Source: Chloroflexota bacterium
GTDB taxonomy: Bacteria; Chloroflexota; UBA5177
NCBI GenBank assembly: GCA_035295425.1
Contig: DATGJB010000147.1
Location: 778 to 64,777, forward strand
DNA: 64,000 nt
Direction: 5' to 3'
Below are positions 17,130 through 34,524 of this stretch, piece after piece. The position numbers and the translations under genes were made by a program. Under the pieces are notes generated by a model. The model was not told the DNA's origin. It did no database searches and saw nothing but the letters and a program-made list of their open reading frames with translations. Position 1 is the stretch's first letter, and every line of letters begins with the position of its first letter.

Positions 17130-17168
17130 TGCAGCACCGAACGCCCGATTGTGTCGAGGAGCATCTGC

Positions 17169-18278: not shown

Positions 18279-18302
18279 CCGGACCGCCAGCTGCACGATT
18301 TC

Positions 18303-18316
18303 AGAACAAATGTTCG
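18303..18316. promoter_or_regulatory. Putative LexA (Cheo) box AGAAC-AAAT-GTTCG
   Basis: Exact GAAC-N4-GTTC with an A/T-rich spacer, intergenic, about 110 bp upstream of the VOC gene. Confidence 0.6.
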
Positions 18317-18426
18317 ACATTTCCCTCTAGAAATCGTGGGCCAGAGCGGCTATCATCTCTCTGCTGCGGTCTCCTTTGTGCGTCTCAACTGGCCATCTAC
18401 GCTCGCCGTAGCAGAAAGAGGAACAC

Positions 18427-19194: not shown

Positions 19195-19225
19195 CCGGCC
19201 ACCGGTTCAGTTCGCACGCAGACGC

Positions 19226-19268
19226 CTCGGAGGGCTCCGCCGATCGGCGGAGCCCTCCGAGTTTCCTC
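19226..19268 (+). terminator. Intrinsic terminator-like hairpin
   Basis: Perfect inverted repeat CTCGGAGGGCTCCGCCGA|TCGGCGGAGCCCTCCGAG followed by TTTCCT. Confidence 0.75.
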
Positions 19269-19288
19269 CTCGTGACCGAAGCGGGCCT

Positions 19289-19539
19289 GCGGCAGGCGCA
19301 CCGGTTGGTGACCGCGCACCGCCAGCAGAGCACCGCCGGAACGTAGAAGAGCGCTTCAGCGCGGTGGCTGTTGTTCAGCCAGGAGTTTCCACCAGGGGAA
19401 ACACCGGCGGGGCACGAACGCGGACCCATGGCGATTATTGCGGTGCTGGGCAACCCCGCACGTCGGGGCCCTGCGACGGACCCCTCGTGCTGATGCGCGG
19501 CGAGAGTGTGGGGCGCGCACGAGGCGCTCCGCTACATGT
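19289..19539 (+). repeat. Copy B of the 251-bp inverted repeat (orphan nfi 3' fragment plus REP doublet)
   Basis: Encodes RQAHRLVTAHRQQSTAGT*, compared with nfi RQAHRLVTAYRQQHTAGT*. About 89% identical to the reverse complement of 3646-3896. Confidence 0.9.
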
Positions 19540-19721
19540 AGGGGGGAGGGGTGGGGGAAGCGAAGGGCAGGTGGAAGTGCCCGGCGCCGGGAATGGGCGC
19601 ATACGCGAATGAGGATTGGACGAGTAGGAGGGAAGCGGCGGCGTGTACGATCAGCATCGCCTTCGCATAAAGTGAGACACGTACCGGCGGCGCGCCGGGA
19701 ACCCGCGGAGGCGAATGCGAG

Positions 19722-22214
19722 ATGGAGAGAAACACCAGGATTGTCATCATCGGGGCCGGCATCGTCGGCTGCAGCCTCGCCGAAGAGCTGACGTCGCTCG
19801 GCTGCGAGAACGTCCTAGTTCTGGATCAGGGTCCACTCTTCCGGCCCGGCGGCTCGACCTCGCACGCACCGGGCGGCGTGTTGCAGATGAACTTCTCGCG
19901 GACCATCACGCAGTTCGCCCAGTACACGGTGCGCCGCTACTGCGAGCTCGAGCTGGACGGCGAGCCGGTCTTCTACCAGGTAGGCAGTCTCGAGGTGGCG
20001 ACGACCGAGGAGCGCTGGGAGGACCTGAAGCGGCGCCACGGCGCTGCTACCTCCTGGGGTGTGCCGTCGGAGATGCTGAGTCCGGAGCAGTGTGAGGCGC
20101 GCATCCCGCTGCTCGACGGCAGTAAGATCCGTGGCGGGCTCTTCGTACCGACCGATGGTGCGGCGCGGCCATCCGCTGCCGCCGAGGCGCTGGCACGGCT
20201 GGCCGTGTCCCGGGGTGCCATCTTCCGCGGCGACACCGAGGTCACGGGCATCGAGGTCCGGCACGGACATGTAACCGGGGTCGACACAGCGGAGGCCTTC
20301 ATCCCGGCCGACGTCGTCGTCAGCTGCGCCGGAATCTGGGGCCCGAGGATCGGGCGCATGGTCGGCGTCAGCATCCCGCTGGTGCCGATGCAGCACCTCT
20401 TTGCCTGGACAACGCCTATCCCGGAGCTGGCCGGCGAGACGCGGGAATCGGCATTCCCGACCATGCGGCATCAGGGCCGCGACCTCTACTTCCGTCATCA
20501 GCGCGACCGCTACGGCGTCGGTACCTACGAGCACCGCCCGTTGCCGATCGCCGCCGACGACCTGCTGAGCCCCCAGGATGCAGAGGTCATGCCGTCGGTG
20601 CTGCCCTTCACGTCCGAGGATTTCGCGCCGTCCTGGGAGGTAACCGCCGAGCTACTGCCCGCGATCGGCCGTGCCGAGCTGGCCGATCCGTTCAATGGCG
20701 TCTTCTCCTTTACCACCGACGGCTTCCCTCTGCTCGGCGAGTCCCGGCAGGTGCGCGGCTTCTGGATGGCCGAGGCGGTCTGGATCACGCACGCCGCCGG
20801 CGTTGCCCGCTCGGTCGCGGAATGGATGGTGACGGGCCGCTCGCACATCGACCTCCGACAGTGTGACATTCAGCGCTTCGAGCCGTTCGCGCTCAGTTCG
20901 TCGTACGTAATGGAGCGAAGCTGTCAGGCCTATATCCAGGTCTACGACGTCATCCATCCGGTCGAATGTATGGACCAGCCGCGTCCGCTCCGCGTCAGTC
21001 CCTTCTACGCGCGCGAGCGAGAGCTTGGCGCGTTCTTCCTCGAGGCAGTCGGGTGGGAGCGTCCACAGTGGTACGAGAGCAACGCGTCGCTGGTCGACGG
21101 ACGTGCCATCCCGCCGCGAGATGAGTGGGCCGGCCGCTTCTGGTCGCCGATTGTCGGCGCCGAGCACCTGGCAACGCGCGAGCGTGTTGCCCTCTACGAC
21201 ATGCAGTCGCTAAGCAAGGTCGAGGTGACCGGACCCGGCGCGGTCGCCTTCCTGCAGCGCCTCACAACCGGCAACATGGACCGCTCGGTGGGCAGCGTCA
21301 CCTACACGCTGATGCTCGACGAAGCGGCCGGCATCAAGAGCGACATCACGGTTGCCCGTCTCGGCAAGGAGCGCTTCCAGATCGGCTGCAACGGACCGCG
21401 GGATGTCGACTACTTTGAGCGCAACCTGCCCGCCGAAGGGTCGGTGCAGATACGCAATCTCACCGGCGGCCTCTGCTGCGTCGGCGTCTGGGGACCGCGC
21501 GCCCGCGATCTAGTGCAGAGCCTGTCGGATGCCGACTTCTCTGAAACCGGCCATCCCTTCTTCCGCGCCAGAGACGTCTACATCCGGGAAGTGCCGGTTA
21601 CTGCAATGCGCCTCTCCTACGTGGGTGAGCTGGGCTGGGAGATCTACACCACTGCCGATCTGGGCCAGCGCCTGTGGGACCTGCTCTGGGAAGCCGGGCA
21701 ATCGCTCGGCGTCATCGCCGGCGGCCGCGGCGCCTACGACAGCCTGCGCCTGGAGAAGGGCTACCGCTTCTACGGCCGCGATATGTGGACCGAGCACGAT
21801 CCCTACGAGGCCGGTCTCGGATTCACGGTCAATCTGGAGAAAGGCGACTTCGTGGGACGCGACGCCCTGCTGCGCCGCCGAGAGGAAGGTCCGCGCCAGG
21901 TCCTCGTTCCGCTGACGCTGGACGATCAGGGGGACGTCGTTATGGGAACCGAGCCGGTCTACGCCGGCGACGAGCCGGTCGGCTTCGTGACGAGCGCCGC
22001 CTACGGCTACTCCATCGGGCGCGGCATCGCCTACGCCTGGCTGCCACCGGGCCATGCCGAGCCCGACACATCCCTCGCGATCGAGTACTTCGGCCGCCGC
22101 CTTCCGGCGACGGTACAGCGCGAGCCGCTCTTCGACCCACTAATGGAGCGAATGAGACAGCGACCCGTCCGAACCGATCAGGCACGTCCCAGTGCCCAGC
22201 TCATCTCCACCTAG
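19722..22214 (+). CDS. Dimethylglycine oxidase/dehydrogenase (FAD + GcvT folate domain)
   Basis: IIGAGIVG, GGSTSHAPG (covalent-FAD His as in Arthrobacter DMGO), SFTTDGFPLLGE, AEAVWITH, GWERPQW, SYVGELGWEIY and LRLEKGY motifs. Confidence 0.9.
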   Translation: MERNTRIVIIGAGIVGCSLAEELTSLGCENVLVLDQGPLFRPGGSTSHAPGGVLQMNFSRTITQFAQYTVRRYCELELDGEPVFYQVGSLEVATTEERWEDLKRRHGAATSWGVPSEMLSPEQCEARIPLLDGSKIRGGLFVPTDGAARPSAAAEALARLAVSRGAIFRGDTEVTGIEVRHGHVTGVDTAEAFIPADVVVSCAGIWGPRIGRMVGVSIPLVPMQHLFAWTTPIPELAGETRESAFPTMRHQGRDLYFRHQRDRYGVGTYEHRPLPIAADDLLSPQDAEVMPSVLPFTSEDFAPSWEVTAELLPAIGRAELADPFNGVFSFTTDGFPLLGESRQVRGFWMAEAVWITHAAGVARSVAEWMVTGRSHIDLRQCDIQRFEPFALSSSYVMERSCQAYIQVYDVIHPVECMDQPRPLRVSPFYARERELGAFFLEAVGWERPQWYESNASLVDGRAIPPRDEWAGRFWSPIVGAEHLATRERVALYDMQSLSKVEVTGPGAVAFLQRLTTGNMDRSVGSVTYTLMLDEAAGIKSDITVARLGKERFQIGCNGPRDVDYFERNLPAEGSVQIRNLTGGLCCVGVWGPRARDLVQSLSDADFSETGHPFFRARDVYIREVPVTAMRLSYVGELGWEIYTTADLGQRLWDLLWEAGQSLGVIAGGRGAYDSLRLEKGYRFYGRDMWTEHDPYEAGLGFTVNLEKGDFVGRDALLRRREEGPRQVLVPLTLDDQGDVVMGTEPVYAGDEPVGFVTSAAYGYSIGRGIAYAWLPPGHAEPDTSLAIEYFGRRLPATVQREPLFDPLMERMRQRPVRTDQARPSAQLIST

Positions 22215-22374: not shown

Positions 22375-22617
22375 ATGCGACAGGTCAACATCCACGAGGC
22401 GAAGACACATCTTTCGCGGCTCGTCGAGGACGCGGCGCGTGGTGACGAAATCATCATTGCCAGGGCCGGCAAACCGGTAGCACGGCTCGTGTCAATCGAC
22501 GACAACGCTACTCCGCGGTGCCCTGGTCTCCTGCGGGACAAGATCTGGATTGCGGATGACTTTGACGCTCCGCTCCCCGAGGAGATGTTGGGGTCCTTTC
22601 ACGGCGCCGCGGGGTGA
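22375..22617 (+). CDS. vapB: Type II antitoxin, Phd/YefM family
   Basis: MRQVNIHEAKTHLSRLVE...IIARAGKPVARLV...DDFDAPLP. Confidence 0.92.
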   Translation: MRQVNIHEAKTHLSRLVEDAARGDEIIIARAGKPVARLVSIDDNATPRCPGLLRDKIWIADDFDAPLPEEMLGSFHGAAG

Positions 22618-22994
22618 GGCTGCTGCTCGATACGCACATCCTCCTCTGGTGGCTGCGGGATGATCGCCTCCTTCCGGCTCGCGCCGGTGCTCTGGTCGCC
22701 GATCGACGCAATCAGGTATTCGTCAGCCCCATGAGCCTCTGGGAGATTGCAATCAAGGCTCAGCTTGGCAGGCTGGAGGCAAACGTCAACGAGGTGAGCG
22801 CCGCCGCGGTACAGAGTGGTCTGGACGAGCTGCCGTTCACGCTGGAGCACGCCGCCGCCGTGGCGGGGCTTCCGCGGCACCACAGCGACCCCTTCGACCG
22901 AGCCCTCGTGGCCCAGGCGCTGTCCGAGCCGCTAACCCTGCTGACGCACGATCAGACGCTCAGCGTGTATGGCCGGCACGTCATGCTTGTCTGA
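22614..22994 (+). CDS. vapC: Type II toxin, PIN domain
   Basis: LLLDTHILLW, SLWEIAIK and HSDPFDRALVAQA motifs. GTGA overlap with the antitoxin. Confidence 0.92.
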   Translation: MRLLLDTHILLWWLRDDRLLPARAGALVADRRNQVFVSPMSLWEIAIKAQLGRLEANVNEVSAAAVQSGLDELPFTLEHAAAVAGLPRHHSDPFDRALVAQALSEPLTLLTHDQTLSVYGRHVMLV

Positions 22995-23013: not shown

Positions 23014-25074
23014 TCAGGCGGTCTTGTCCGTGCCCGTCTCGCGTAGCTGGAGCTCTTTGGCCAGCAACTCATCCGGCGGGATATGGCAGCGGTACTGGTT
23101 GCCGGCCGGGCCGCGACGCCAGGGCGGCTCCTGCTGCTTGCAGATATCGCCTAGGTAGAGCGGGCAGCGGGTGTGGAAGCGGCAGCCGCTCGGCGGGTCG
23201 CTCGGGCTCGGAAGCACGCCGCGCAGCTTCACGCGGGTGCGCGCGCCCTCTGATTCCAGCATCGGCATCGCCGATAGCAGCGACTCGGTATACGGATGGT
23301 GCGGAATGTCGAAGACCGCCTCGGCCGGTCCCACCTCCATCAGCCAGCCCAGGTACATAACGCCGATGTAGTCGGCGATGTAGCGCACCACTGCCAGATC
23401 GTGCGAGATGAAGACGTAGGAAACGCCGGTCTTCTGCAGATCCACCAGCAGGTTCAGGATCGCCGCCTGTACCGACACATCCAGTGCCGACACCGGTTCG
23501 TCGCATAGGACCAGCGACGGCGATCCGGCAAAGGCTCGGGCGATCGAGGCCCGCTGCTTCTGGCCGCCCGACAGAGCGGTTGGCCGCGCGTCGAGGTGTC
23601 GCCCTTCGAGCTTGACCGACGTTGCAAGCTGGTCGGCGCGTTGCTCCAGCTCAGCGCGGCTTCGAATCCCGGCCAGACGCCGTAGTGCCCGGAACAGGGA
23701 CGTGCGGATTGAGTAGCTCGGGTTCAGCGCGCTGTCCGGGTTCTGGAAGACCATCTGCAGCTTGCGTCTGAGATCAAGGCGGCGGCGCACCGCGACCGCG
23801 GGAAGCGGCGCCTGCTCGAATTGCACCGCCCCACCGGTAGGAGCGGTGAGGCCGACGATAACCTTGGCCAGCGAGCTCTTGCCGCTGCCTGACTCCCCCA
23901 CCAGACCGAAGACCTCGCCGCGCCGGACTTCCAGGGACACGCCCGCCACCGCCGCGACCGCGCTGCCGCCTGAATGGTACGTCTTGATCAGATCGTCGAT
24001 CTTGAGGAGCACCTCATCGCTGCGGGCGGGGAGCGGCTCCACAGCGGCCGCGCTGCTGGGCGGAATCCGGTCCACCTCCTCGAAGTAAAAGCAGCGGCTT
24101 GCCCGGGTGTCGGACACGGGGATCAGCGGCGGCTTCTCCTCACGGCAGCGCTCGCGCGCGATCGGGCAGCGGTCGGCGTAGTTGCAACCCGGAGGCTGGG
24201 AGCCAAGCGCGGGCAGCGAGCCCGGAATAGGATCCAGCCGCTGGGTGCGCTTATTCATGCCGAGCCTCGGCACGCAGCGCAGCAGGCCGAGGGTGTAGGG
24301 ATGGCGCGGGTCGAGGAACGCCTTGAGCGCCGGCCCTTCCTCGATCACCCGGCCGGCGTAGAGCACGCCGACACGTTCGCAGATGCGCGCAACGATGCCC
24401 AGATTGTGGCTGATGAACAGGATCGAGGTGTTGAATTGGGCGCGGAGCTGCTCCACCAGGTCGAGCACCTCGGCCTCGACCGTGGCGTCGAGACCCGTGG
24501 TGGGCTCGTCGAGCACCAGTAGCTCCGGGTCGGTCGCCAACGCCATCGCGAACATGATTCGCTGCTGCTGCCCGCCGGACAGCTCGTGGGGGTATCGCTG
24601 CAGTACGCCTCGCGGATTGGAGATCTGGACCTTCTCCAGCATTGCGGCCGAGGCGTCCCACGCCTCCTGTTTGTCCATGTGCCGGTGATAGCGGTAGACC
24701 TCCGCGATCTGGGAACCGATGCGCATTGACGGATTCAGCGCGCTTCCCGGGTCCTGATAGACCATCGCCATCCGATCGCCGCGCAGCGCCCGCAGCTCGG
24801 AATCGGAGAGGGTAAGAAGATCCTTGCCGGCGAACATGATCTTCCCGCTCTCCACAATGGCGTTCGACGGCAGATAGCGCATGAGCGCCATTGCCACGGT
24901 CGTCTTCCCGCAACCGGACTCGCCGACCAGACCGTACGCCTCGCCCGGCTTGATATACAGCGAGATATCGTCGATCACTTTCAGCGCCCGCCGCTTTCGG
25001 CGGTAGCGGATGGTCAGACCCGAGATGTCGACGGCGTGGGTGGACGCTGCGGCAGTCGTTTCGGCAACGCTCAT
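23014..25074 (-). CDS. Peptide/nickel-type ABC ATP-binding protein (fused DppD-DppF)
   Basis: Two NBDs (GESGCGKT and GESGSGKS, LSGGQ), HPYT and Cys-rich C-terminal oligopeptide-ATPase motifs. ATG 25074 overlaps the permease stop. Confidence 0.93.
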   Translation of the reverse strand: MSVAETTAAASTHAVDISGLTIRYRRKRRALKVIDDISLYIKPGEAYGLVGESGCGKTTVAMALMRYLPSNAIVESGKIMFAGKDLLTLSDSELRALRGDRMAMVYQDPGSALNPSMRIGSQIAEVYRYHRHMDKQEAWDASAAMLEKVQISNPRGVLQRYPHELSGGQQQRIMFAMALATDPELLVLDEPTTGLDATVEAEVLDLVEQLRAQFNTSILFISHNLGIVARICERVGVLYAGRVIEEGPALKAFLDPRHPYTLGLLRCVPRLGMNKRTQRLDPIPGSLPALGSQPPGCNYADRCPIARERCREEKPPLIPVSDTRASRCFYFEEVDRIPPSSAAAVEPLPARSDEVLLKIDDLIKTYHSGGSAVAAVAGVSLEVRRGEVFGLVGESGSGKSSLAKVIVGLTAPTGGAVQFEQAPLPAVAVRRRLDLRRKLQMVFQNPDSALNPSYSIRTSLFRALRRLAGIRSRAELEQRADQLATSVKLEGRHLDARPTALSGGQKQRASIARAFAGSPSLVLCDEPVSALDVSVQAAILNLLVDLQKTGVSYVFISHDLAVVRYIADYIGVMYLGWLMEVGPAEAVFDIPHHPYTESLLSAMPMLESEGARTRVKLRGVLPSPSDPPSGCRFHTRCPLYLGDICKQQEPPWRRGPAGNQYRCHIPPDELLAKELQLRETGTDKTA

Positions 25075-25985
25075 GACTCCAGCACCTCCTTGAGGCCGTC
25101 CGCCACGAAGTTGATCGCGATCACCAGGGAAGCGAGGGCCAGGGCCGGAAAGAGCACCGTCCAGGGTGCGATCTGCAGGACGGTACGCTCCTGGGCGATG
25201 GTCAGGCCCCAATCCGGTGAGGGAGGCTGGATTCCGAAGCCGAGGAACGACAGTGTGGCGACGGTGAAGATGGCATAGGCAAGACGAACCGTCGCCTCCA
25301 CCACGATCGGACCTGTGATGTTCGGCAGGATCTCGCGCGCCATGATGAACGGTCCGCGCGCGCCCAGCAGCTTGGCCGCGGCCACGTACTCCCGCTCCCG
25401 CTCCACCAGGACCGCGGCACGGACCGTCCGCGCCACGATCGGCGAGAAGATGATGCCGATGACCAGTACCACGTTGAGCGTGCTGGAACCGAAGACGGTC
25501 AGGACGAGGATGGCGATGATGATCCCAGGGAACGAGAGAAGCGCGTCGACCGCCCGCATCAGCACGTCGTCGACGATCCCGCGATAGTAGCCGGCGATCA
25601 GCCCAACCGCGATCCCTCCGATCAGGCCGAGCAACGTCGCCTCGACCGATATCGTCAGCACCGAGCTTGCCCCCGCCAGGACGCGAGAAAAGACATCGCG
25701 CCCCAGATCATCAGTGCCGAACCAGTGGGCGCCGGATGGTGCGCTGAGCGAAGTGGAGAACGCCTGCGGGTCTTGCGGGACGTAGAGCTGCCAGAAGATC
25801 GCGTCAAAGACCCAGTACAGCAGAACCACCGCGCCGACCACGAAAACCGGCGAGCGCAGCAGGCCGGCGCCGACCTCACGCAGCCGCGCCCGCCGCCCCA
25901 CGGTCGTTGAAGTGACGATTGGGCCAAGCGGCGCGTCGGGTGAGGGAATGGGCTCGAGGGCAGGCGGCTGGCCGACGGCTTCCAT
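25071..25985 (-). CDS. ABC permease, DppC-like
   Basis: HWFGTDDLGRDVFSR, EYVAAAKLLG and LSFLGFGIQPPSPDWG motifs. Confidence 0.93.
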   Translation of the reverse strand: MEAVGQPPALEPIPSPDAPLGPIVTSTTVGRRARLREVGAGLLRSPVFVVGAVVLLYWVFDAIFWQLYVPQDPQAFSTSLSAPSGAHWFGTDDLGRDVFSRVLAGASSVLTISVEATLLGLIGGIAVGLIAGYYRGIVDDVLMRAVDALLSFPGIIIAILVLTVFGSSTLNVVLVIGIIFSPIVARTVRAAVLVEREREYVAAAKLLGARGPFIMAREILPNITGPIVVEATVRLAYAIFTVATLSFLGFGIQPPSPDWGLTIAQERTVLQIAPWTVLFPALALASLVIAINFVADGLKEVLES

Positions 25986-26926
25986 CAGTCGCTCAACCTC
26001 ACCCGAGGATTCAACACGGCGTAGAGGACGTCGGCGCTGAGGTTGGCCACCATGTAGATGATCGCGATGAGCAGCACAGTCGCCTCGAGCATCGGCACAT
26101 CGTGTCCCTGGGCGGAGTCGAAAACCAGCTTGCCGATCCCCGGGTAGCTGAAGAGCGTCTCGATCACGACCAGGCCACCTACCAGGTAGCCGGCCTGGAC
26201 GAAGACGACGGTGATCGTCGGCAGTAAGGAGTTCCGCAGAACATGCCGAAAGATGACGACCCGACGCGGTAACCCCTTGAGCACCGCCGTGCGCACGTAG
26301 TTCGAGTCAAGCGTCGATATCGTGCCGGCCCGCGCCATGCGCGCGATATAGCCAAACAACACAAACATCAGTGGTATGGACGGCAGCAGCAGCTGATGGA
26401 TGATATCCGCCGGATTCCAGGATGGGACGTTGGCGGAAGCCGGTAGCCACTTGAGGGCAACCGCGAAGATGACCAGCAGGACAACGCCGGACACGAACTC
26501 CGGCAAGGCGATCAGCGACAGCCCCATGACCGTGATCAGCCGGTCGAGCACCTTTCCGTGCGACAGGGCGGCGACGACTCCCAGCCCGATCGAGATCGGC
26601 ACGATCAAGATGAATGCGAACCCGGCGAGAATCAGCGAATTTACCAGGCGCGTCAGTGCCATCGCCCGGACCGGCGTATTGAGCAGATACGATTGCCCCC
26701 AGTCGCCACGCACAAACGCCGTCGCCCATTTCCAGTAGCGGACGGGCAGTGGCTGGTCCACACCAAGCTGATGATCGACGCGCGCCACCGCATCAGGGGA
26801 GGCGTATGGGCCAAGGATGATCCTACCCACATCACCGTGCAGCTGCGAGACAGCGAACACCGCCATGGAGACGAGAATCAGGGTGACGAGGGCGAGTGCC
26901 AGTCGCTTGAGAATGAACCGCCCCAT
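25985..26926 (-). CDS. ABC permease, DppB-like
   Basis: GDWGQS, YVRTAVLKGL, RHVLRNSLLP and VIETLFSYPGIG motifs. Confidence 0.93.
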   Translation of the reverse strand: MGRFILKRLALALVTLILVSMAVFAVSQLHGDVGRIILGPYASPDAVARVDHQLGVDQPLPVRYWKWATAFVRGDWGQSYLLNTPVRAMALTRLVNSLILAGFAFILIVPISIGLGVVAALSHGKVLDRLITVMGLSLIALPEFVSGVVLLVIFAVALKWLPASANVPSWNPADIIHQLLLPSIPLMFVLFGYIARMARAGTISTLDSNYVRTAVLKGLPRRVVIFRHVLRNSLLPTITVVFVQAGYLVGGLVVIETLFSYPGIGKLVFDSAQGHDVPMLEATVLLIAIIYMVANLSADVLYAVLNPRVRLSD

Positions 26927-27120: not shown

Positions 27121-28716
27121 TCAAGGCCAGGAGCCGGCGGCCAGGAACCGGGAGACCCGCTCGATATCCGGACCGAGTGGTCGATCCCGCACCACCGGCT
27201 CGATCATGTCTTCGATCGCCCCGGCATACGGCTCGAGGCCCGGTGCTACCGGCGTTGCTCCCAGCCACCACGCCTGGCGGCAGATGAGAAGGACGCAGGC
27301 GATGACATCGCGAAGCAGCGCCTCCGCCCGGCGGAGCTTCTCGGCGGACTCGAATGTGAACGTCATTGCGTCCTCCTGCCCCAGCGAGGTATCGGCCAGC
27401 CCGATCGAGGCCGGGGTTGCGAGCCGCCTCAGCTGGTTCAATATCCCGACGATCCGCTTCTGAACCACCACCAGGCCGGCGTTGAGTCCCGGCGCCGCAG
27501 CGAGCTGGTCCGGCAACCCCGTGAAGCGTGAATCGAGCAGGCGGTGCGCGTGCTGTCCGGCCAGCTCCGCCGCCTGCGCCAACGCGATACAGAGATAGTC
27601 CAGGTCGCTCGCGAGGTCCACGGCGTGGAACCCGCCGTGGGAGACAAACTGCCCGTCAACGAAGGCCGGCGAGTCGGTCACCGCGACCAGTCCCCGCCGC
27701 AGGTCTTCCTCCAGCCGGTCGGTGACCCGGGCAAGGTGCGCCAGCACCTGGGGGATTACGCGAAGCGAGACCGGTGCCTGAACCAGGGATGGCTCCCGAT
27801 TCCCGGCCCCCGCGGGTTCGTGCCCTCGGGGCGTCCCCTGTGGGTTCCTTCCCGGCCGTGCCCGTGCTTCGGATCGCGACCGGTCCTGATCCGCCCCCCC
27901 GAGAAGCTCGGCCAGACGGTCCAGCACCTCCGCCATGATGGGGTCGTTCGCCAGCCGCGCTACCACCGGCTGATACGGGCTCAGTGGCGCCCGCAATGCA
28001 TCGATCGCGCATGCTGCGCAGACCAGGAGCTGTTGGTACAGCACTCGAGCGGCGCGCCGCCGCGCGGCTCCAAGGGCCACCGCCGCCGGCGCCCCGGCGA
28101 GCAACGCGATGCCCTCCTTTGCGCCAGGACGGTACGGCGCCACTCCTCGCGCCGCGAGCGCGCCGGTCGCATCCTGCGTGGCACCGGATCTGCCATCACC
28201 GGCGGCCAGGACATCCCCACTACCGATGAAAGGCCCGAAGGCGTGGGCGAGAGGGATGATCTCTCCGGCACAGCCAACTGCCGTACTCGGAATCGCTGGG
28301 ATGAACCCGTCGTTCAGGCGATCCGCCAGGAAGCTGCACAGCTCGGGCGACCCACCCGCCGCCCCGTCGAGGAAGCCGGCGAGCCGGACCACCAGCACGG
28401 CCCGCGCCTCGGCGGGTTCCAGATAGGGTGGACCTCCCACTGCTCGTCCGCGCAGCAGGTTTGCCTGGTGCACCTCCTGCTCGTCGGCACTGAGCGAGAC
28501 TCCCGCCAGATACCCCATTCCGGTCGTCACGCCGTACACCTCGCGGCCGTCGGCGAGAGCCGCGAGCATATCCTTCCGCGTCGCCGCGACATGGCCGAGG
28601 AGCTCGGGCGCAAGCCTGACCTGCCACCCGTCCCAGGCGATCGCCTCCAGCGCCGCCAGGGTGAGATCGGCCGCCGAATGCAGCCTGATCGTGCCGCTCA
28701 TATCATTCTGTTCCAT
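27121..28716 (-). CDS. HAL/PAL-superfamily ammonia-lyase-like protein lacking the MIO tripeptide
   Basis: VYGVTTGMG, PLAH, AKEGIAL, SLRVIPQV, GGFH and GQED match the HAL fold. Ala-Ser-Gly is replaced by Cys-Ala-Gly. Confidence 0.85.
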   Translation of the reverse strand: MEQNDMSGTIRLHSAADLTLAALEAIAWDGWQVRLAPELLGHVAATRKDMLAALADGREVYGVTTGMGYLAGVSLSADEQEVHQANLLRGRAVGGPPYLEPAEARAVLVVRLAGFLDGAAGGSPELCSFLADRLNDGFIPAIPSTAVGCAGEIIPLAHAFGPFIGSGDVLAAGDGRSGATQDATGALAARGVAPYRPGAKEGIALLAGAPAAVALGAARRRAARVLYQQLLVCAACAIDALRAPLSPYQPVVARLANDPIMAEVLDRLAELLGGADQDRSRSEARARPGRNPQGTPRGHEPAGAGNREPSLVQAPVSLRVIPQVLAHLARVTDRLEEDLRRGLVAVTDSPAFVDGQFVSHGGFHAVDLASDLDYLCIALAQAAELAGQHAHRLLDSRFTGLPDQLAAAPGLNAGLVVVQKRIVGILNQLRRLATPASIGLADTSLGQEDAMTFTFESAEKLRRAEALLRDVIACVLLICRQAWWLGATPVAPGLEPYAGAIEDMIEPVVRDRPLGPDIERVSRFLAAGSWP

Positions 28717-28898
28717 GCATCTTCACCAGCCCGCACTTCCACACCCCGTATCACCACACCCAGTACCTCCAGACCCCGTACCTCCGCGCCCCGTCCCTAC
28801 CACACCCTGTACTGCCGCGCCCCGCACCTCCACGCCCGCACCCCCGCGTCCTGCACCCCCATGCTCCTCACCCCCCGCGCCCCGTGCTTCCACACCCC

Positions 28899-29155
28899 GT
28901 AGCGGAGGGCTTCAGCCCGGGTACCACCCGCAGAAAGCGTCCCGAGAAACGCCGCCCTACCAGGTCGAAATGGAGACACTCTTGCCATGCGAGGCCCGGG
29001 CTAAAGCCCTCCACTACGCCTTCCCTTCCACGCCCCGTAGCAGAGGGCTTCAGCCCGGTCTCGGCCTGCAGAAAGCGTCCCGAGAAACGCCGCACCGTCA
29101 CGAGGAAATGGGGACAGTTTTGCCATGCCGGGCCCGGGCTAAAGCCCTCCACTAC
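28899..29155. repeat. Two tandem REP doublets (REPIN/BIME-like), 138-bp period
   Basis: GTAGC[G/A]GAGGGCTTCAGCCCGG at 28899 and 29037. Inverted partners CCCGGGCTAAAGCCCTCCACTAC end at 29017 and 29155. Shared spacer GCAGAAAGCGTCCCGAGAAACGCCGC. Confidence 0.92.
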
Positions 29156-29328
29156 GGCGTCACGTCCGTCGGCGCGTCCATCAGGGAGTACGTCGTCGCA
29201 TTCATCGGCGGATCCGTCGGCGCGCCTGTCGCCGAGCCCATCGCCACTTCCATAGGGAAGTCCATCATGGACGCCCATCGCCGCGTCCATCGTGGAGTCG
29301 TCACGGTGCGGATCATGGTGGGAACCGC

Positions 29329-30327
29329 TCACTCGCGGTAGGCCAGCGCGGTACCGATGTCCATCGCCTCAGCACGCTTCCAGATGAGATGCGCCACCGC
29401 GATATCCGTCGTCGCCAGCCCGCGGTGCCAAAACAGGATCCGTTCTTCCGCCGATTCCCTACCCGGGCGCTTCCCGGCGACGATCTCGCCCAGCTCGGCA
29501 TGAAGATTCTCCCTGGTGAGCAGCCCCTCGTCGACATGCCGGCGCAACGCGCCAAAGGGCCCGACCGTCGCCTGGCCCCAGTCGTCGACCACGACCTTGT
29601 CCATGATCGAGGTCAGCGACAGCTCCACCGCGCTCACCGTGCCGTAGGGGACCACGAGCGTTCCGGGCCCCACCCAGTCGGTGCGAAGCAGCACTTCGGG
29701 TTTCGTCAGACGCGTGGCCTCGACCACGATGTCGGCGCCGGCGAGCGCTTCCTCTGGCGACGCCGCGACTTGTACCGGCTTCCCCAGCTCCCGGCTCAGC
29801 CGCCGCGCGAACTCCTCACGCGACTGGGGTCGGGCGCTGGTGACGCGGATCTCGCGAAAGTCGAAAAGGTCGTCCAGCATGGTGACGTTCCACCATGCGC
29901 TGCCCCGGGAGCCGATATGCCCCAACACGGCACTGTCCGGCCGGGCAAGATAGCGGGCTCCGAGGGCGGTCATCGCCCCGGTGCGCGCCGCCGTGATGAG
30001 CGTCCCATCGACGATCGCCAGCGGTGCGCCGGTCTCCGGACTGTACAGTGTGACGAGTGCCAGCTCACTCGGCAGGCCGTGTCGATAATTCTCGACGAAG
30101 TCGCCCACGACCTTCACCCCGCTCACACCGAGTGGCGCGACGTGCCCACGCAGCACGTTGAAGTGCCCGCCACTTGCCGGCGGGACCAGGTGCACGCGTG
30201 GCTCCAGGACCACCTGGCCATTCCCCTGGGCACGAACGGCCGCTTCAACCGCGCCGAGAATGTCTCTGCGCGTCAATTGAAGCTGCTCGATATCAGCGGC
30301 AGACACAAATCGCGTCGTGAGCTTCAT
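29329..30327 (-). CDS. Ornithine cyclodeaminase/mu-crystallin family protein
   Basis: GVKVVGDF, ITAARTGA, HAELGEIVAGKRPGRES and HRGLATTDIA motifs. Confidence 0.9.
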   Translation of the reverse strand: MKLTTRFVSAADIEQLQLTRRDILGAVEAAVRAQGNGQVVLEPRVHLVPPASGGHFNVLRGHVAPLGVSGVKVVGDFVENYRHGLPSELALVTLYSPETGAPLAIVDGTLITAARTGAMTALGARYLARPDSAVLGHIGSRGSAWWNVTMLDDLFDFREIRVTSARPQSREEFARRLSRELGKPVQVAASPEEALAGADIVVEATRLTKPEVLLRTDWVGPGTLVVPYGTVSAVELSLTSIMDKVVVDDWGQATVGPFGALRRHVDEGLLTRENLHAELGEIVAGKRPGRESAEERILFWHRGLATTDIAVAHLIWKRAEAMDIGTALAYRE

Positions 30328-30389: not shown

Positions 30390-30580
30390 GGCGGCATCGT
30401 TTCCGGCCCGCTCTGCCGGCGACGAGCGTCCGCGAAGCTGGCTTCTTCGAGGAGGTGCTGACCGCCGGAAACCGGTTGTGACGTTTCTTCGCTGGCATCC
30501 GTTCTGGATAGGTGTACAGAGGAGATGTTCGTGGACGCATCCATGCCCCAGACTCGGAGGAGAGTCGAGGAGGAGAAGCA

Positions 30581-32242
30581 ATGGTAAGGGACGAGTACGA
30601 GCTCGTGGAAGATGTGCTGAATGGCGTGATGAGCCGCCGTCAGCTGATCACGAGACTCATGGCGGCAGGTGTCGCCCTGCCGACGATCGTGGGTATCCTG
30701 ACCGAGACCGGTCTCGGCGGTGAGGCCGAGGCGGCGCAGCTCGCGGCCCCTGCGCTGGCGCCGAAGCGTGGCGGAACGCTGAAGATCGGGTATCTGGTGC
30801 CCGCCGCCGACGTCGATCCGGTGACCATGTTCAATGAGGGGGCGATCCTGACGGCGCAGCTCTCGATGGAGTACCTGTGCTATCCGCGCCCCGACTACTC
30901 GCTGGCGAAGAAGCTCGCCGTTTCGTGGCACGCGCCCAAGCCGGATACCTGGATCTTCAACCTCCGCAAGGGTGTCAAGTGGCACAACGGCAAGCCCTTC
31001 ACCGCGGACGATGTCGTGTACACCTTCAATCTGCTGACCGACCCCGCTACCAACTCGGCGGCGCTCTCGGCCTTCAAGGGCATACTCTCCAAGGGCCACA
31101 CGCGAAAGATCGACGCGCACACCGTGCAGTTCCATCTCGATCGTGGGTACTCGGGTTTCCCCTACCTGGTATCGGCCCTCACCTACAACTCGGCAATCCT
31201 GCCGAAAGGGTATAAAGTCGGCCAGTTCATCAAGGGCGGCATCGGGACCGGTCCATTCATCCTGACCGGGTACACGCCCAAGGTCGGCGCCACCTACAAG
31301 AAGAACCCCCACTACTGGGCGAAGGGCCTGCCCTATCTCAACGGGGTCCACATCAAGTACTACGGAGCCGACCAGGCGACCGTGCTCGGATTGCAGGCGG
31401 GCGAGGTCGATATCTTCCCCAACGCCACCTACCAGGGGGGCCAGGCACTGTTCTCCGACTCGAATCTCCGGATTCTCCGGAACCCGGGCAGCGCCTACCG
31501 CGAGTTCCACATGCGGGTCGATAAGTCGCCCTTCACCGACAAGCGGGTGCGGCAGGCGGTCGCTTATAGTCTCGATCGCCCTGCCCTGGTCAAGAGCCTG
31601 CTGAACGGCCTGGGCCAGGTCGGCAACGACCACGGCTTCGCTCCGGTGTTCGGGCCGCTCTCGGCGGGTGCGAAGAAGGTTCCCCAGCGCAAGCAGGACA
31701 TCGCCAAGGCGAAACAGCTGCTGGCGGCAGCCGGCCATCCGAATGGCATCGATGTCACCCTGACGTTCGAGAACTACCTCGAGATTCCGCAGTACGCCGT
31801 CATCATCAAAGAGCAGTGCAAAGCTGCCGGCATCAACGTTACCCTCAACGGCGAGGATCAGAACACCTACTACGGCTCGGGCGACAACCAGCCCTGGCTG
31901 TTGGTGCCGATGGGAATCGTGGACTGGGCGCCGCGCGGTACACCCAGCCAGCTGATCACACCGGCCTACCTCAGTAGCTCGATTCCGCCACCGTTCTCCG
32001 GCTGGAATTCGGCCCACTGGTCCAACAAGACCTTCGACCGTCTCATCGCCAACTCGGACAAAGAGATCAACAAGACCAAGTACAACGCGGACGTCTACCA
32101 GGCGGCGAAGATCATGAACGACGAGGTCCCGGCGGTCATCGCTTACTGGATCAACGACCTGCACGCGCTCAAGAAGACAGTTCACGGCGTGCCGAACGGT
32201 CCCGGGCCGTATCCGGACTTCTCGGCTACCTGGATCGGCTAA
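30581..32242 (+). CDS. ABC substrate-binding protein, family 5 (DppA-like), Tat signal
   Basis: SRRQLI twin-arginine-like signal, LRKGVKWHNGKPFTADDVVYT, IGTGPF, PFTDKRVRQA. AGGAGG RBS. Confidence 0.92.
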   Translation: MVRDEYELVEDVLNGVMSRRQLITRLMAAGVALPTIVGILTETGLGGEAEAAQLAAPALAPKRGGTLKIGYLVPAADVDPVTMFNEGAILTAQLSMEYLCYPRPDYSLAKKLAVSWHAPKPDTWIFNLRKGVKWHNGKPFTADDVVYTFNLLTDPATNSAALSAFKGILSKGHTRKIDAHTVQFHLDRGYSGFPYLVSALTYNSAILPKGYKVGQFIKGGIGTGPFILTGYTPKVGATYKKNPHYWAKGLPYLNGVHIKYYGADQATVLGLQAGEVDIFPNATYQGGQALFSDSNLRILRNPGSAYREFHMRVDKSPFTDKRVRQAVAYSLDRPALVKSLLNGLGQVGNDHGFAPVFGPLSAGAKKVPQRKQDIAKAKQLLAAAGHPNGIDVTLTFENYLEIPQYAVIIKEQCKAAGINVTLNGEDQNTYYGSGDNQPWLLVPMGIVDWAPRGTPSQLITPAYLSSSIPPPFSGWNSAHWSNKTFDRLIANSDKEINKTKYNADVYQAAKIMNDEVPAVIAYWINDLHALKKTVHGVPNGPGPYPDFSATWIG

Positions 32243-32251
32243 CCTCCGAGG

Positions 32252-33361
32252 TTGAAGATCACGGCAATTCGAGCTCGGCGCCTGTGCGCCGAGCTCGATC
32301 CGCCTTTTCATGCTGCCTGGGACCCGGTACCGCGGCGGCGCGTCGCCGCCACGCTCGTCTGCGTCGAAACCGACGAGGGCATCACCGGCGTCGGCTCGGG
32401 CGACACCATGGACGGCTTCGAGCCGTTCGCCGAGTTGTTCATCGGCCAGGATCCGCTGGCCATCGCCCGCCACGTCCGCACGTTGGAGACGATCAGCTTC
32501 CACGCCGGCCGCTACTGGCCGCTGGAAGCGGCGCTCTGGGACATTATCGGCCAGGTATGCGGGCAGCCGGTGTCCGTACTGTTCGGCGGCGCCGCCGAAC
32601 GCATCCCCGCCTACGCCTCCTGTGGCGAGCTGAAAGGGCCTGAGGAGCGCGCGGAGTCGGCCCTGGCACTCCGCGAGGAGGGGTTTCGGGCCTTGAAGAT
32701 CCGCGTCCAGCCGGGACTGGCTCCAGCCGGCGTGGCTGCCGTGGCGGCGGTACGGGCGGCGGTGGGCGACAGCATGGACATTCTGGTCGACCTCAATCAG
32801 GCCTGGCGGATGGCAGGCGACCTCTCGCCGGCACTCGACGCCGCCGGGGCCCGCCGCGCCGCTGCAGAGCTGACCGAGCTTGGAGTGCTGTGGCTCGAGG
32901 AGCCGCTCCCGCTGACCGACCGGCGAGGCATCCGGGATCTTCGTCAGGTCACCGGTATGCGCATCGCCGGCGGGGAGATGACCCGCACTCTCGACGAGCT
33001 ACTCGACTACCTGGCCGACGATCTGCTCGACGTCTACCAGCCCGACGTGGTCCTCGCCGCCGGCATGTCGCGGGTCCGGCTGGTTGCCGAGACCGCTCTG
33101 GCGCGTAACCGCTGGTTCAGTCCCCATACCTGGACGAACGGTCTGGGACTGCTCGCGAACCTCCACGTCGCGACTGGGGTCGGAGGTGGCCCGTATCTGG
33201 AGTTTCCGTACGATCCGCCCGGCTGGACGGTCGAGCGTCGGGACTTCTTTCTCGCCGAGCCGATCCGAGTCGGACCGGATGGGTGTGTAGCCGTCCCTTC
33301 CCGACCCGGATTGGGCGCACTTCTCGACGGTCCGACGCTCGACCGGCTGGAGGTTACATGA
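32252..33361 (+). CDS. Mandelate racemase/muconate-lactonizing (enolase superfamily) enzyme
   Basis: AALWDIIG; KxR in place of KxK; metal ligands VD/EEP/GGE; QPD...PH His-Asp dyad; PSRPGLG. Confidence 0.9.
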   Translation: MKITAIRARRLCAELDPPFHAAWDPVPRRRVAATLVCVETDEGITGVGSGDTMDGFEPFAELFIGQDPLAIARHVRTLETISFHAGRYWPLEAALWDIIGQVCGQPVSVLFGGAAERIPAYASCGELKGPEERAESALALREEGFRALKIRVQPGLAPAGVAAVAAVRAAVGDSMDILVDLNQAWRMAGDLSPALDAAGARRAAAELTELGVLWLEEPLPLTDRRGIRDLRQVTGMRIAGGEMTRTLDELLDYLADDLLDVYQPDVVLAAGMSRVRLVAETALARNRWFSPHTWTNGLGLLANLHVATGVGGGPYLEFPYDPPGWTVERRDFFLAEPIRVGPDGCVAVPSRPGLGALLDGPTLDRLEVT

Positions 33362-34524
33362 GCCCACTGACGGACCAACGATTCACCATCGGTGTGGAGG
33401 GGCGCGCCCTTTTCGGGGCCGGCTCAATCGCCGAGCTCCCGTCCTTGCTCCCTCCCATCTCCGGCAACCGGGTGTTGCTGGTGACCGACGGCGGAGTGGT
33501 TGCTGCAGGCATCGCCGGCGAGGTCATCGCACTGCTCGAGGCGCATGGTTTCGAAACCCCGCTGTTCGATGGGGTGCATCCGAATCCCTCCACCGCGACG
33601 CTGGAACGGGGCGCGGCGGCGGCGCGCTGGCTCGCGCCGAGTGCTGTCATCGCCCTGGGAGGCGGAAGCGTGCTCGACGCCGCCAAGGGTATCGCGCTGC
33701 TTGCCACCAACGACGTGTCGCCGCCTGAGATCGACTACCGCATCGAGCCGGCAGCACCCGGCCTACCAGTTATCGCCATCCCCACCACGGCAGGCACGGG
33801 TTCGGAAACCAACGGTTTCGGCGTGTTCGAAGATCCGGAGGCCCATCGGAAGTTTTACGCCGGCCACGCCAGCGTTGTTCCGGCACGCATCATCCTCGAT
33901 CCGGTGCTCACTCTCGGGCTGCCGCCGCCTGCTACCGCCAGTACCGGGATCGACGTCCTGGCACATGCCCTCGAATCACTCTCCTCGCGCCGGTCAAACC
34001 CATACGCGCAGGGCCTGAACCTCCAGGTGGTGCGCATGGTCCTGCGGTACCTTCCGGAAGCCGTGCGCGACGGCGCCGATCTCGAAGCACGCGCCCAGAT
34101 GCTGCTCGCCGCCCACATGGCCGGGCTTGCCTTCGCCACCACCGGCCTCGGCCTGGCACACGCTACCGCCCACGCCCTCAGCGCGCACTCCGGTACCGCC
34201 CACGGGGTCGGTCTCGGCATCCTGCTCCCGCATGTCCTCGCCTTCAACCTGGGCGTTTGCCGCGACGCCTATGAAGCTGTTGCCGCCACGGTCGCCGCGA
34301 CCGGTCTGCCGCTCACCTCGACGAGCGAGCCGCATGCCGCCGTCGAAGCGGCCCATGCGCTGGTGCGCGCGGTCGGCGCGCCGCTGGCGCTCGCCGAGGT
34401 GGGAGTCGCCTCGGCGTCGATCGACCTGGTCGTCGCCGATGCCCTGGCCGACGAGGTCATCCTCAACACACCCCGCCTACCGACCAGCGACGAGCTACGC
34501 GCGTTGCTCGAAGCGGCGTTCTGA
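33358..34524 (+). CDS. Iron-containing (type III) alcohol dehydrogenase
   Basis: LGGGSVLDAAK, IPTTAGTGSE, DVLAHALES, HATAH and HG metal-binding motifs. Confidence 0.92.
   Translation: MSPLTDQRFTIGVEGRALFGAGSIAELPSLLPPISGNRVLLVTDGGVVAAGIAGEVIALLEAHGFETPLFDGVHPNPSTATLERGAAAARWLAPSAVIALGGGSVLDAAKGIALLATNDVSPPEIDYRIEPAAPGLPVIAIPTTAGTGSETNGFGVFEDPEAHRKFYAGHASVVPARIILDPVLTLGLPPPATASTGIDVLAHALESLSSRRSNPYAQGLNLQVVRMVLRYLPEAVRDGADLEARAQMLLAAHMAGLAFATTGLGLAHATAHALSAHSGTAHGVGLGILLPHVLAFNLGVCRDAYEAVAATVAATGLPLTSTSEPHAAVEAAHALVRAVGAPLALAEVGVASASIDLVVADALADEVILNTPRLPTSDELRALLEAAF

Follow-up and report, generated by a model that had tools for sequence, protein, structure and literature searches.

A Candidate MIO-Independent Histidase-Fold Lyase and Its OCD/mu-Crystallin-Family Partner in Chloroflexota and Other Bacteria

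The stretch of DNA analyzed here, hereafter the window, comprises 64,000 nucleotides from a Chloroflexota bacterium (GTDB lineage Bacteria; Chloroflexota; UBA5177; assembly GCA_035295425.1, contig DATGJB010000147.1, positions 778 to 64,777 of the forward strand). It harbors (i) a lyase gene with the fold of histidine ammonia-lyase (HAL), referred to in this report as HALL, (ii) a gene of the OCD/mu-crystallin family, which lies upstream of HALL on the same strand and is the conserved partner of the lyase, and (iii) transporter and methyl-group genes on either side of this pair (Table 1). The HALL protein lacks the Ala-Ser-Gly triad that gives rise to the 4-methylideneimidazole-5-one (MIO) cofactor, and its residues, relatives, and gene neighbors suggest that it is quite probably a MIO-independent lyase acting on an alkylated amine.

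Gene, Protein, and Fold

HALL (protein P0001) is a 531-residue open reading frame (ORF) with an ATG start and no internal stop, as an earlier note on this DNA had held when it called the frame intact. The protein matches PF00221 over almost the whole model (E 2.1e-91), and it falls below every NCBIfam cut-off for HAL, tyrosine ammonia-lyase (TAL), phenylalanine ammonia-lyase (PAL), and aminomutases, scoring 258.5 against a cut-off of 539.15 for hutH, 173.3 against 501 for tyrosine 2,3-aminomutase, and 76.1 against 519.15 for PAL. The lack of an ergothionase-named match is uninformative for HALL, since P0252, a protein of the ergothionase clade described below, also meets HAL, TAL, PAL, and aminomutase models alone and no ergothionase-named one in an NCBIfam scan. 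A canonical hutH (656.6 bits) occurs elsewhere in the same genome together with hutU (956 bits), so HALL is an extra paralog. To judge from the sequences, the residues carried by members of the HALL clade contradict their source annotations, which are “histidine ammonia-lyase” or “aromatic amino acid lyase”.

An AlphaFold2 model of HALL, built with 28 family sequences, has a mean predicted local distance difference test score (pLDDT) of 83.4 and a predicted template modeling score of 0.86. Foldseek ranks the HAL of T. acidophilum (7tqr) first, with template modeling (TM) scores of 0.82/0.89, and places ergothionase 6s7j at rank 18 with 0.83/0.89; scores to HAL and tyrosine aminomutase structures together span 0.82–0.89. 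HAL (P. putida 1b8f/1gkm; T. acidophilum 7tqr) is thus the best match of HALL in both sequence (4.9e-46) and fold (TM at most 0.89). Ergothionase is matched at 8.4e-23, over residues 17–229 in the N-terminal half only.

Active-Site Residues

All of the motifs that the earlier note had picked out are seen in the translation, namely VYGVTTG (residues 60–66), LLRGR (87–91), CAG within VGCAGEI (147–153), ALLAG (204–208), QAPVSLR (313–319), DSP (348–350), and QED (447–449). Aligned with histidase, HALL keeps Tyr61 (HAL Tyr53), Gln313 (Gln277), Arg319 (Arg283), Phe363 (Phe329), and Glu448 (Glu414). The positions around MIO and the free amino group are replaced and read Ala150, Ala207, Ala314, Val316, and Ser349. 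Three of these, Ala207, Val316, and Ser349, stand where HAL has Asn195, Tyr280, and Asn313 in the numbering of the P. putida enzyme. The MIO-type x-Ser-Gly triad is missing, its place being occupied by Cys149-Ala150-Gly151, and Arg91 stands in for His83, so that the MIO triad, His83, Asn195, Tyr280, and Asn313 are all replaced.

In each of five separate MAFFT runs, Lys420 falls opposite the Lys of “QKT” in ergothionase, a position at which histidases have Tyr. The “QKT” Lys carries index 383 in chain 6s7j_A, one under the published Lys384, and the loop Tyr of the same chain carries index 53, presumably Tyr54 in the numbering of the literature. Arg421 contributes a third positive charge in the subclade to which the HALL of the window belongs.

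Conservation was counted over 120 aligned sequences, that is, HALL and its 119 best homologs. Arg91, Lys420, and the GQED motif are each kept in 120 of 120, and Tyr61, Arg91, Gln313, Arg319, Lys420, and Glu448 are fixed in the clade while the triad drifts. The latter reads CAG in 53 members, SAG in 34, SSG in 12, ASG in 9, GAG in 7, TAG and AAG in 2 each, and GSG in 1, with Ala as the middle residue in 98. The equivalent of Asn195 is Ala in 114 members and Asn in 6. Arg91 and Ser349 are fixed throughout the clade.

Two preprints on MIO-less trimethylammonia-lyases (10.1101/2025.08.13.670108; 10.64898/2026.04.22.720169) describe enzymes that lack Ala-Ser-Gly and use a catalytic Tyr among other residues, with a trimethylammonium leaving group required by every MIO-deficient lyase characterized. 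In these accounts, the carboxylate is bound by Gln, Arg, and Asn, and the two imidazole nitrogens are bound by His and Glu. Lys384 of ergothionase binds the thiolate, with Asn in its place in histidine betaine lyase. The core of such an enzyme is present in HALL, which has no Ala-Ser-Gly and retains Tyr61, Gln313, Arg319, and Glu448.

HALL and ergothionase (T. denticola 6s7j; Burkholderia ErtA) are alike in having the HAL fold without MIO, the loop Tyr, the Gln and Arg for the carboxylate, the Glu of the ED motif, an aliphatic residue for Tyr280, no Asn195, and a Lys at the position of Lys384. HALL differs from ergothionase in forming a separate clade, in the replacements of His83 by Arg and of Asn313 by Ser, in lacking a one-residue deletion in the triad loop, and in its gene partner, which is an OCD-family gene in place of thiourocanate hydratase. 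With Arg91, Ser349, and Lys420, the HALL pocket would resemble an ergothionase pocket turned more cationic.

The same two preprints identify Swoo_3913 and SO_3299 of Shewanella as histidine betaine and N-pi-methyl-histidine-betaine trimethylammonia-lyases. Like HALL, these are MIO-less PF00221 proteins with a Tyr/Gln/Arg/Glu core. They keep His117 and Asn339 and have Asn in place of Lys384, where HALL has Arg91, Ser349, and Lys420. They are also periplasmic enzymes that are coupled with flavocytochrome reductases, whereas HALL lies beside an OCD-family gene and an importer.

Clade and Conservation

A search of 5.8 billion proteins lists the best 120 relatives at 51–65% identity to HALL, nearly all from metagenome bins of Chloroflexota, Actinomycetota, and Dormibacterota. 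The nearest homolog among the matches listed is 65% identical. All 126 columns with a conservation of 95% or more across the 119 homologs are retained in HALL, and the other family members retain fractions of 0.94–1.0 (median 0.98). GC content by codon position (0.77/0.52/0.80) is of the coding type and like that of the neighboring gene. To judge from this conservation, HALL is a real gene under selection rather than one in decay.

Exhaustive HMMER scanning of 1.84 billion cluster representatives yielded 5322 relatives at E≤0.001 and 307 at E≤1e-30. A first tree was built on 109 rows drawn from the full-length ones of the best 150, with eight apparently frameshifted or partial rows left out. 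A branch with a Shimodaira–Hasegawa-like approximate likelihood ratio test (SH-aLRT) value of 100 sets apart 20 of the 109 rows as the HALL clade. Its rows carry x-A/S-G in the triad, [GA]R at the Ser-His position of HAL (in every row), and H/Q-K, and most of them have QAPV and DSP as well. The clade counts at least 20 full-length members that represent 50%-identity clusters. In a second MIO-less clade of five rows (SH-aLRT 100), the triad loop is one residue shorter by deletion and most rows carry QDPL and QKT motifs, and its member P0252 has ergothionase 6s7j as best solved relative (4.7e-85). When 50 rows were placed in a second tree, inferred with a site-heterogeneous model, the HALL clade (14 rows) and the ergothionase-like clade both received 99. 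Both trees are unrooted and lack clear support at their deep nodes, including the relative order of the two clades, and are compatible with one loss of MIO or with two.

The earlier note had asked whether CAG is conserved in a clade. The clade is well supported, and CAG itself is not fixed in it, being found in fewer than half of the members as the triad drifts. The alternative named there, that close homologs carry Ala-Ser-Gly and this copy is under relaxed selection, fits neither the full set of conserved columns nor the place of the homologs with a middle Ser. These 22 of 120 (ASG, SSG, and GSG) are nested among the xAG members and share the other non-MIO residues of the clade. Their nested position suggests that the Ser reflects drift of a small residue and not a retained cofactor signature.

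The OCD/mu-Crystallin-Family Partner

Linkage was assessed in 63 related loci, 56 of which have a tblastn match over at least half of HALL. An OCD homolog occurs in 34 of these 56. In 25 it lies directly upstream and codirectional, with gaps of 0–518 bp; four are adjacent and convergent, four lie across an OpuA-type transporter operon, and one is found at +6.7 kb. Of the 22 loci that lack an OCD gene, seven extend less than 1.2 kb upstream. OCD-linked members are found in both major HALL subclades, and the partner is more conserved than the lyase (59–76% vs 34–57% identity).

The OCD protein of the window has an archaeal alanine dehydrogenase (1.5e-44) and pyrroline-2-carboxylate (Pyr2C) reductase (1.7e-42) as its best PDB matches and reaches no NCBIfam cut-off. 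Adjoining the OCD gene in an Actinomycetes bin is a ThyX (Thy1) gene split by an intein splicing domain (L013:12528-13802). Directly after the OCD-HALL pair, Pfam identifies a Pyridox_ox_2 gene (PNPOx-like flavoprotein) in two loci (L044:11487-12158 and L060:10600-11274), and a third locus has an ORF of the same size in this position, known by size and position alone (L051:11442-12116).

Insertion and Spacer in This Copy

Two features set the locus in the window apart. The first is an in-frame insertion of 30 residues between the GGAD and QAPVS motifs. It is rich in Arg, Pro, and Gly and is found only in this copy when compared with the 29 homologs displayed. The model gives it a pLDDT of ~50, tyrosine aminomutase covers most of this additional stretch in the alignment, leaving a gap of just 7 residues, and there is no second copy of its DNA in the genome. 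The second is the spacer between the OCD gene and HALL. Two tandem 138-nt units (28887–29024 and 29025–29162, 83% alike), each with inverted arms of 24–28 nt, are flanked there by periodic repeat runs of 15 and 24 nt, and pieces of the spacer recur on five other contigs of the same genome (C72, C184, C149, C63, and C102). It looks like a small palindromic mobile or repetitive extragenic palindromic (REP)-like element inserted between normally abutting genes. No promoter-like or terminator-like site was found within the spacer.

Gene Neighborhood of the Window

The permeases and the fused ATPase of a Dpp-type ABC transporter follow HALL on the same strand, in an order (HALL, DppB, DppC, ATPase) that is repeated in L012 and L039. 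On the far side of the OCD gene lie a solute-binding protein gene, an enolase-superfamily gene, an iron-containing alcohol dehydrogenase gene, and a gene of mammalian type resembling betaine-homocysteine S-methyltransferase (BHMT), homologs of the last being found in L001, L005, L014, and L039. The MR_MLE protein has acid-sugar-dehydratase-like enzymes as its best solved relatives. Beyond the transporter is a run of SoxA-like, SoxB-like, MetE-like, glyoxalase-fold, and dimethylglycine/sarcosine-dehydrogenase-like genes. This run (12556–22214), taken together with the BHMT-like gene, forms a methyl-group oxidation neighborhood, as expected for catabolism of glycine betaine to glycine.

Table 1. 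Coordinates of the genes and features discussed, as positions in the window
Feature	Position	Strand	Basis or remark
HALL, HAL-fold lyase gene	27121–28716	−	PF00221, 307.4 bits; AlphaFold2 model; Foldseek
Cys149-Ala150-Gly151 codons, replacing MIO-forming Ala-Ser-Gly	28264–28272	−	translation, alignments
Arg91 codon, replacing HAL His83 (imidazole N-tau binder)	28444–28446	−	aligned to HAL “SH” in three alignments
Lys420-Arg421 codons; Lys420 corresponds to ergothionase Lys384, Tyr in HAL	27454–27459	−	MAFFT alignments
In-frame 30-residue insertion, residues 281–310	27787–27876	−	missing in 29 homologs displayed
Spacer between OCD gene and HALL, 612 bp, repeat-filled	28717–29328		repeat analysis
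OCD/mu-crystallin-family gene, P0005, 332 residues, conserved partner	29329–30327	−	PF02423, 204.7 bits
Dpp/Opp-type solute-binding protein (SBP_bac_5)	30512–32242	+	260.7 bits
Enolase-superfamily (MR_MLE) gene	32252–33361	+	profile match; homologs of 45–73% identity in related loci
Iron-containing alcohol dehydrogenase	33283–34524	+	profile match; true start probably later than ORF start
BHMT-like gene, mammalian-type	34569–35624	−	PF02574; PDB BHMT 1umy, 2.4e-61, full length
Dpp-type ABC permeases	25985–26926, 25071–25985	−	downstream of HALL
Fused double ATPase of Dpp-type ABC transporter	ORF 23014–25212	−	downstream of HALL
Phd/YefM antitoxin and PIN-domain toxin	22375–22617 and 22614–22994		between the dehydrogenase-like and ABC ATPase genes
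Dimethylglycine/sarcosine-dehydrogenase-like gene (DAO + FAO_M + GCV_T)	19722–22214	+	profile matches
Glyoxalase-fold gene	18427–19194		
MetE-like methyltransferase	17151–18278		
SoxB-like DAO	15658–16869		
SoxA-like gene	12556–15162		

Gene Neighborhoods of Related Loci

The 63 related loci and the window were compared as 64 neighborhoods by crude ORF calling, clustering of the ORFs, and annotation of cluster representatives. Transport is represented by Dpp/Opp-type binding proteins (16/64) and OpuAC-type betaine-binding proteins (13/64). The best solved relatives of the latter are engineered sensors made from a quaternary-amine-binding protein and the osmoprotectant binder ProX, followed by the ergothioneine binder EgtUC (8.5e-30). 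In Rubrobacteraceae, an OpuA ATPase, permeases, and binding protein come directly after HALL. One-carbon and methyl-group functions include a formaldehyde-dehydrogenase-like Zn-dependent alcohol dehydrogenase (11/64), formaldehyde-activating enzyme (Fae; 5/64), and BHMT-like methyltransferases (5/64). Enolase-superfamily genes (12/64) and hydantoinase-like amidohydrolases (4/64) also recur.

A further set of neighbors relates to histidine and sulfur. True urocanate hydratase (hutU, 904 bits vs 375) lies beside HALL in 8 of the 64. Five loci carry a second MIO-less PF00221 paralog near HALL (L012:16880-18400, L039:16998-18494, L020:6729-8207, L021:15832-17307, and L031:7771-9642), and the window itself has none. 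These second lyases belong to the ergothionase clade, with the triad-loop deletion, a His at the His83 position (in Ser-His, Ala-His, or Asn-His), and no equivalent of Lys384; by these residues, a histidine betaine lyase is a plausible assignment. In L021, hutF and an M20 amidase gene lie between HALL and the second lyase. A CDO-type thiol dioxygenase gene lies next to the lyases in L020 (8825-9876; with a rhodanese gene also in this locus) and L031 (7137-7790), in Euzebyales and Sciscionella bins. From sequence, both are candidates for an ergothioneine dioxygenase; actinobacteria reportedly oxidize ergothioneine with a CDO-like dioxygenase, the SO2 being removed by a desulfinase.

Just upstream of OCD-HALL in Rubrobacteraceae, scans identified a TauE/SafE sulfite exporter gene in L008 and a sulfatase-family gene in both L008 and L023. 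Counterparts were assigned by ORF clustering and position alone, in L023 for TauE and in L011 for the sulfatase. A choline-O-sulfate reading of the loci that combine sulfatase, OpuAC, and TauE genes was rejected, as the sulfatase scores 81–101 bits against a choline-sulfatase cut-off of 433.

OCD-Linked Lyases in Proteobacteria and Streptomyces

The OCD partner is not confined to HALL. A tblastn search of the OCD protein of the window against 72,556 plasmid records returned 85 records at E≤1e-60, 65 of them at 60–80% identity. OCD proteins 60–64% identical to that of the window lie beside lyases in R. leguminosarum, R. johnstonii 3841, Martelella, Polaromonas, Burkholderia, and Streptomyces chartreusis, and in the 50-row tree these lyases fall in the ergothionase clade and not with HALL. 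In the first three organisms, the order is hutC, lyase, a glycine-betaine-type binding protein, OCD, a PhnD/SsuA-like protein, two permeases, and an ATPase. In Polaromonas JS666 it is a YeiH-type transporter, lyase, a TctC-type binding protein, OCD, and a PhnD-like protein; in Burkholderia PAMC 26561 and S. chartreusis, the OCD gene is followed directly by the lyase. An 884-residue open frame that suggested an OCD-lyase fusion in S. chartreusis proved to be an artefact of two genes in different frames.

These clusters also resemble the HALL loci in their OpuAC-type binding protein, which is 38–42% identical. Unlike the HALL loci, proteobacterial clusters add the PhnD/SsuA-like protein and the YeiH-type exporter, both of which are missing from the HALL loci and from the genome of the window. 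A YeiH-type exporter is carried by the Rhizobium operons as well, one of which (L069) spans 809023–828000 of R. johnstonii 3841 pRL12; L066, L068, and L072 are similar proteobacterial operons. The lyase operon in Rhizobium starts with CoA-transferase, short-chain dehydrogenase/reductase (SDR), and MaoC hydratase genes.

Three of the four such lyases that were aligned have Arg at the His83 position ([GA]R) together with Lys, and the Polaromonas lyase keeps His. The Arg-plus-Lys signature accordingly accompanies the OCD module in both lyase clades. Since the same OCD partner stands beside both, the lyase-plus-OCD module would be older or more mobile than either clade. The annotation of the proteobacterial lyases as “hutH” looks wrong from their sequences, because the protein has no Ala-Ser-Gly. 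An ergothioneine sulfonate pathway has reportedly been reconstituted from Agrobacterium radiobacter; it may overlap these OCD-linked lyase clusters, among them the Rhizobium-type one.

Proposed Reaction

MIO-independent elimination of a methylated amine is the best account of HALL, given the fold, the fixed catalytic core, the lost MIO residues, and the betaine and one-carbon company of the gene. By homology, Tyr61 in the loop would take the β-proton, while Gln313 and Arg319 would bind the carboxylate of the substrate. As a trimethylated or otherwise alkylated ammonium, which is already a good leaving group without MIO, the amine would depart unaided. Positions that in histidase serve MIO or the free amino group are occupied in HALL by the small hydrophobic residues Ala150, Ala207, Ala314, and Val316. 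The earlier proposal of a MIO-independent member of the HAL fold is supported by the conservation across the clade and by the trees, as is that of an N-methylated or betaine substrate by the OpuAC-type, BHMT-like, dimethylglycine-dehydrogenase/sarcosine-oxidase-like, and formaldehyde-handling genes. Full-text literature searches returned no paper on the HALL clade or on an OCD-linked HAL-like lyase, and the MIO-less lyases they returned were limited to ergothionase and the Shewanella enzymes; PMC10903977 contains nothing on catabolism.

The side-chain pocket would combine the retained Glu448 with Arg91 in place of the imidazole-binding His and with Lys420 as the counterpart of the thiolate-binding Lys384. 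Such a pocket points to an amino-acid betaine with a negative side chain, in line with the anionic side chain that the earlier note had suspected from the His-to-Arg change and that the fixed Arg91 and Lys420 fit well. The comparisons thus support the core of the earlier proposal, an uncharacterized lyase that works without MIO on a betaine bearing an acidic side chain. The suggestion in the same note that this side chain is not that of histidine is not supported, in view of the retention of Glu448, the match of Lys420 to Lys384, and the hut genes, thiol dioxygenase, and ergothionase-like paralogs nearby. The retained Glu and Lys and the hut and sulfur context make a histidine-derived acidic betaine at least as likely as one of other origin.

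The leading candidate would be a histidine betaine substituted at C2 with sulfur, that is, ergothioneine, its sulfinate, or its sulfonate. An acidic imidazole betaine of this kind is favored by Glu448, which is retained, by Lys420 with its likeness to ergothionase, and by the gain of Arg91. These three compounds in particular are favored by the recurrence, in three unrelated lineages, of hut genes, a thiol dioxygenase, sulfite/sulfate exporters, HutC regulators, and ergothionase-clade paralogs. That the substrate is a histidine-derived anionic betaine has somewhat less than an even chance of being right, and that it is specifically an oxidized form of ergothioneine is possible but doubtful. 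The products would be trimethylamine and a substituted urocanate. The flanking ABC transporter may import the substrate, and the OCD enzyme may act in the same short pathway, probably converting the ring-bearing product at the expense of NAD(P)H. A chemically reasonable idea is that it delivers a hydride from NAD(P)H to C2 of the ring, with expulsion of sulfite, leaving urocanate; such a role would explain the linkage to hut genes and the HutC regulators. Directly shown are the fold, the lost MIO residues, the conservation across the clade, and the gene linkage, from which the lyase chemistry, the leaving group, the substrate class, and the part played by the OCD enzyme are inferred. Taken as a whole, the explanation that HALL is a MIO-less lyase for an anionic betaine, most plausibly of the ergothioneine type, with the OCD enzyme in the same pathway, is favored on balance.

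Alternative Explanations

Several observations weigh against the favored explanation. HALL is closer in sequence to HAL than to ergothionase, falls outside the ergothionase clade in both trees, and lacks two defining residues of the imidazole-type trimethylammonia-lyases, the His and Asn that Arg91 and Ser349 replace. MIO might yet form in the 22 members with a middle Ser. In the window, the repeat-filled spacer parts the OCD gene from HALL, the closest solved relatives of the OCD protein say little about its substrate, and the cluster holds no sulfur gene. The genome, which is 92% complete, has no CDO_I or EgtD, no PhnD-like or YeiH homolog, and no FMO-like or DUF1989 gene for the use of trimethylamine. 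The hut, sulfur, and second-lyase neighbors are each limited to a few lineages and could reflect lineage synteny, and an ergothioneine substrate leaves the enolase-superfamily, iron-containing alcohol dehydrogenase, hydantoinase-like, and Xaa-Pro-dipeptidase-like neighbors unexplained.

The strongest competitor retains the MIO-independent elimination of a methylated amine and changes the substrate to a betaine that is not derived from histidine (one of Glu or Asp, a sulfated or phenolate aromatic, or another acidic compound), the second acidic group of which would be held by Arg91 and Lys420. It would account for the change of His83 to Arg in every member of the clade and of Asn313 to Ser, as well as for the generic betaine/one-carbon, enolase-superfamily, and iron-containing alcohol dehydrogenase genes of a window without hut or sulfur genes. 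The CoA-transferase, SDR, and MaoC genes of Rhizobium would suit a β-oxidation-like handling of an enoate such as glutaconate and speak for it against a histidine-derived substrate, and Polaromonas has a TctC-type carboxylate-binding protein. This substrate class is nevertheless unlikely, if a serious contender. HALL retains both Glu448, which corresponds to the residue of HAL that binds imidazole N-pi, and a Lys like that of ergothionase; hutU, hutH, hutF, HutC-type regulators, thiol dioxygenase, and ergothionase-clade paralogs recur near the module; and the OCD partner is left without a role. One particular version, a proline betaine or hydroxyproline pathway with the enolase-superfamily protein as betaine epimerase and the OCD protein as Pyr2C reductase, was set aside as a separate explanation: it leaves Arg91, Lys420, and the hut and sulfur neighbors unexplained, and the best solved relatives of the MR_MLE protein are acid-sugar-dehydratase-like.

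A lyase for a secondary or tertiary amine of the opine type, the amino-acid leaving group of which would be oxidized by the OCD partner, is improbable. The alanine dehydrogenase and Pyr2C reductase relatives of the OCD protein would fit such a role, and SBP_bac_5 proteins include opine and agrocinopine binders. By the established chemistry of the family, however, a protonated secondary amine leaves no better than ammonia when MIO is absent. The OpuAC-type binding proteins in 13 neighborhoods and in the Rhizobium and Martelella clusters, as well as the recurring methyl-group and formaldehyde genes, also point away from opines.

That HALL is a decaying or catalytically dead copy, in which the 30-residue insertion disrupts the protein and a repeat insertion severs it from its partner, is very improbable. 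The insertion is indeed found in this copy alone among those compared, and the spacer exceeds the 0–518 bp seen in relatives. The frame is intact, however, with all 126 conserved columns retained and codon-position GC like that of the neighboring genes, and the insertion is in frame, of low model confidence, and located where tyrosine aminomutase also has extra residues. Least probable of all is an ordinary MIO-dependent ammonia-lyase or aminomutase with an odd triad: the PF00221 fold, the retained Phe363, and the few relatives with ASG or SSG are what one would expect of it, but HALL has Ala at the residue that must dehydrate, normally Ser, the equivalents of Asn195, Tyr280, Asn313, and His83 are replaced across the clade, all NCBIfam cut-offs are missed, and a canonical hutH is present elsewhere in the genome.

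Implications

The favored explanation, a MIO-less lyase for an anionic betaine with an OCD enzyme in the same pathway, extends a small group, as known MIO-less lyases of the histidase fold are few and comprise ergothionase and two Shewanella betaine lyases. HALL represents a separate and sizeable MIO-less clade with its own fixed signature of [GA]R, QAPV, DSP, and H/Q-K. The module of a lyase and an OCD-family protein spans phyla and lyase clades and provides an unassigned OCD/mu-crystallin-family branch with a concrete pathway context.

Should ergothioneine or one of its oxidation products be the substrate, the pathway would bear on the recycling in soil of a major microbial antioxidant and would be a source of trimethylamine and sulfite. 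A bolder reading, speculative and decidedly unlikely in its full form, is that HALL and the OCD enzyme constitute an undescribed two-enzyme salvage of oxidized ergothioneine in soil Chloroflexota, Actinomycetota, and Dormibacterota. HALL would remove trimethylamine from ergothioneine sulfinate or sulfonate, hydride transfer to C2 by the imine-reductase-like OCD enzyme would expel sulfite, and the resulting urocanate would pass to the hut pathway. In Proteobacteria and Streptomyces, lyases of the ergothionase clade would take the place of HALL beside this partner in a parallel route. If true, this salvage would add a new reaction type to the OCD/mu-crystallin family and a second, independently shaped active site for anionic histidine betaines.

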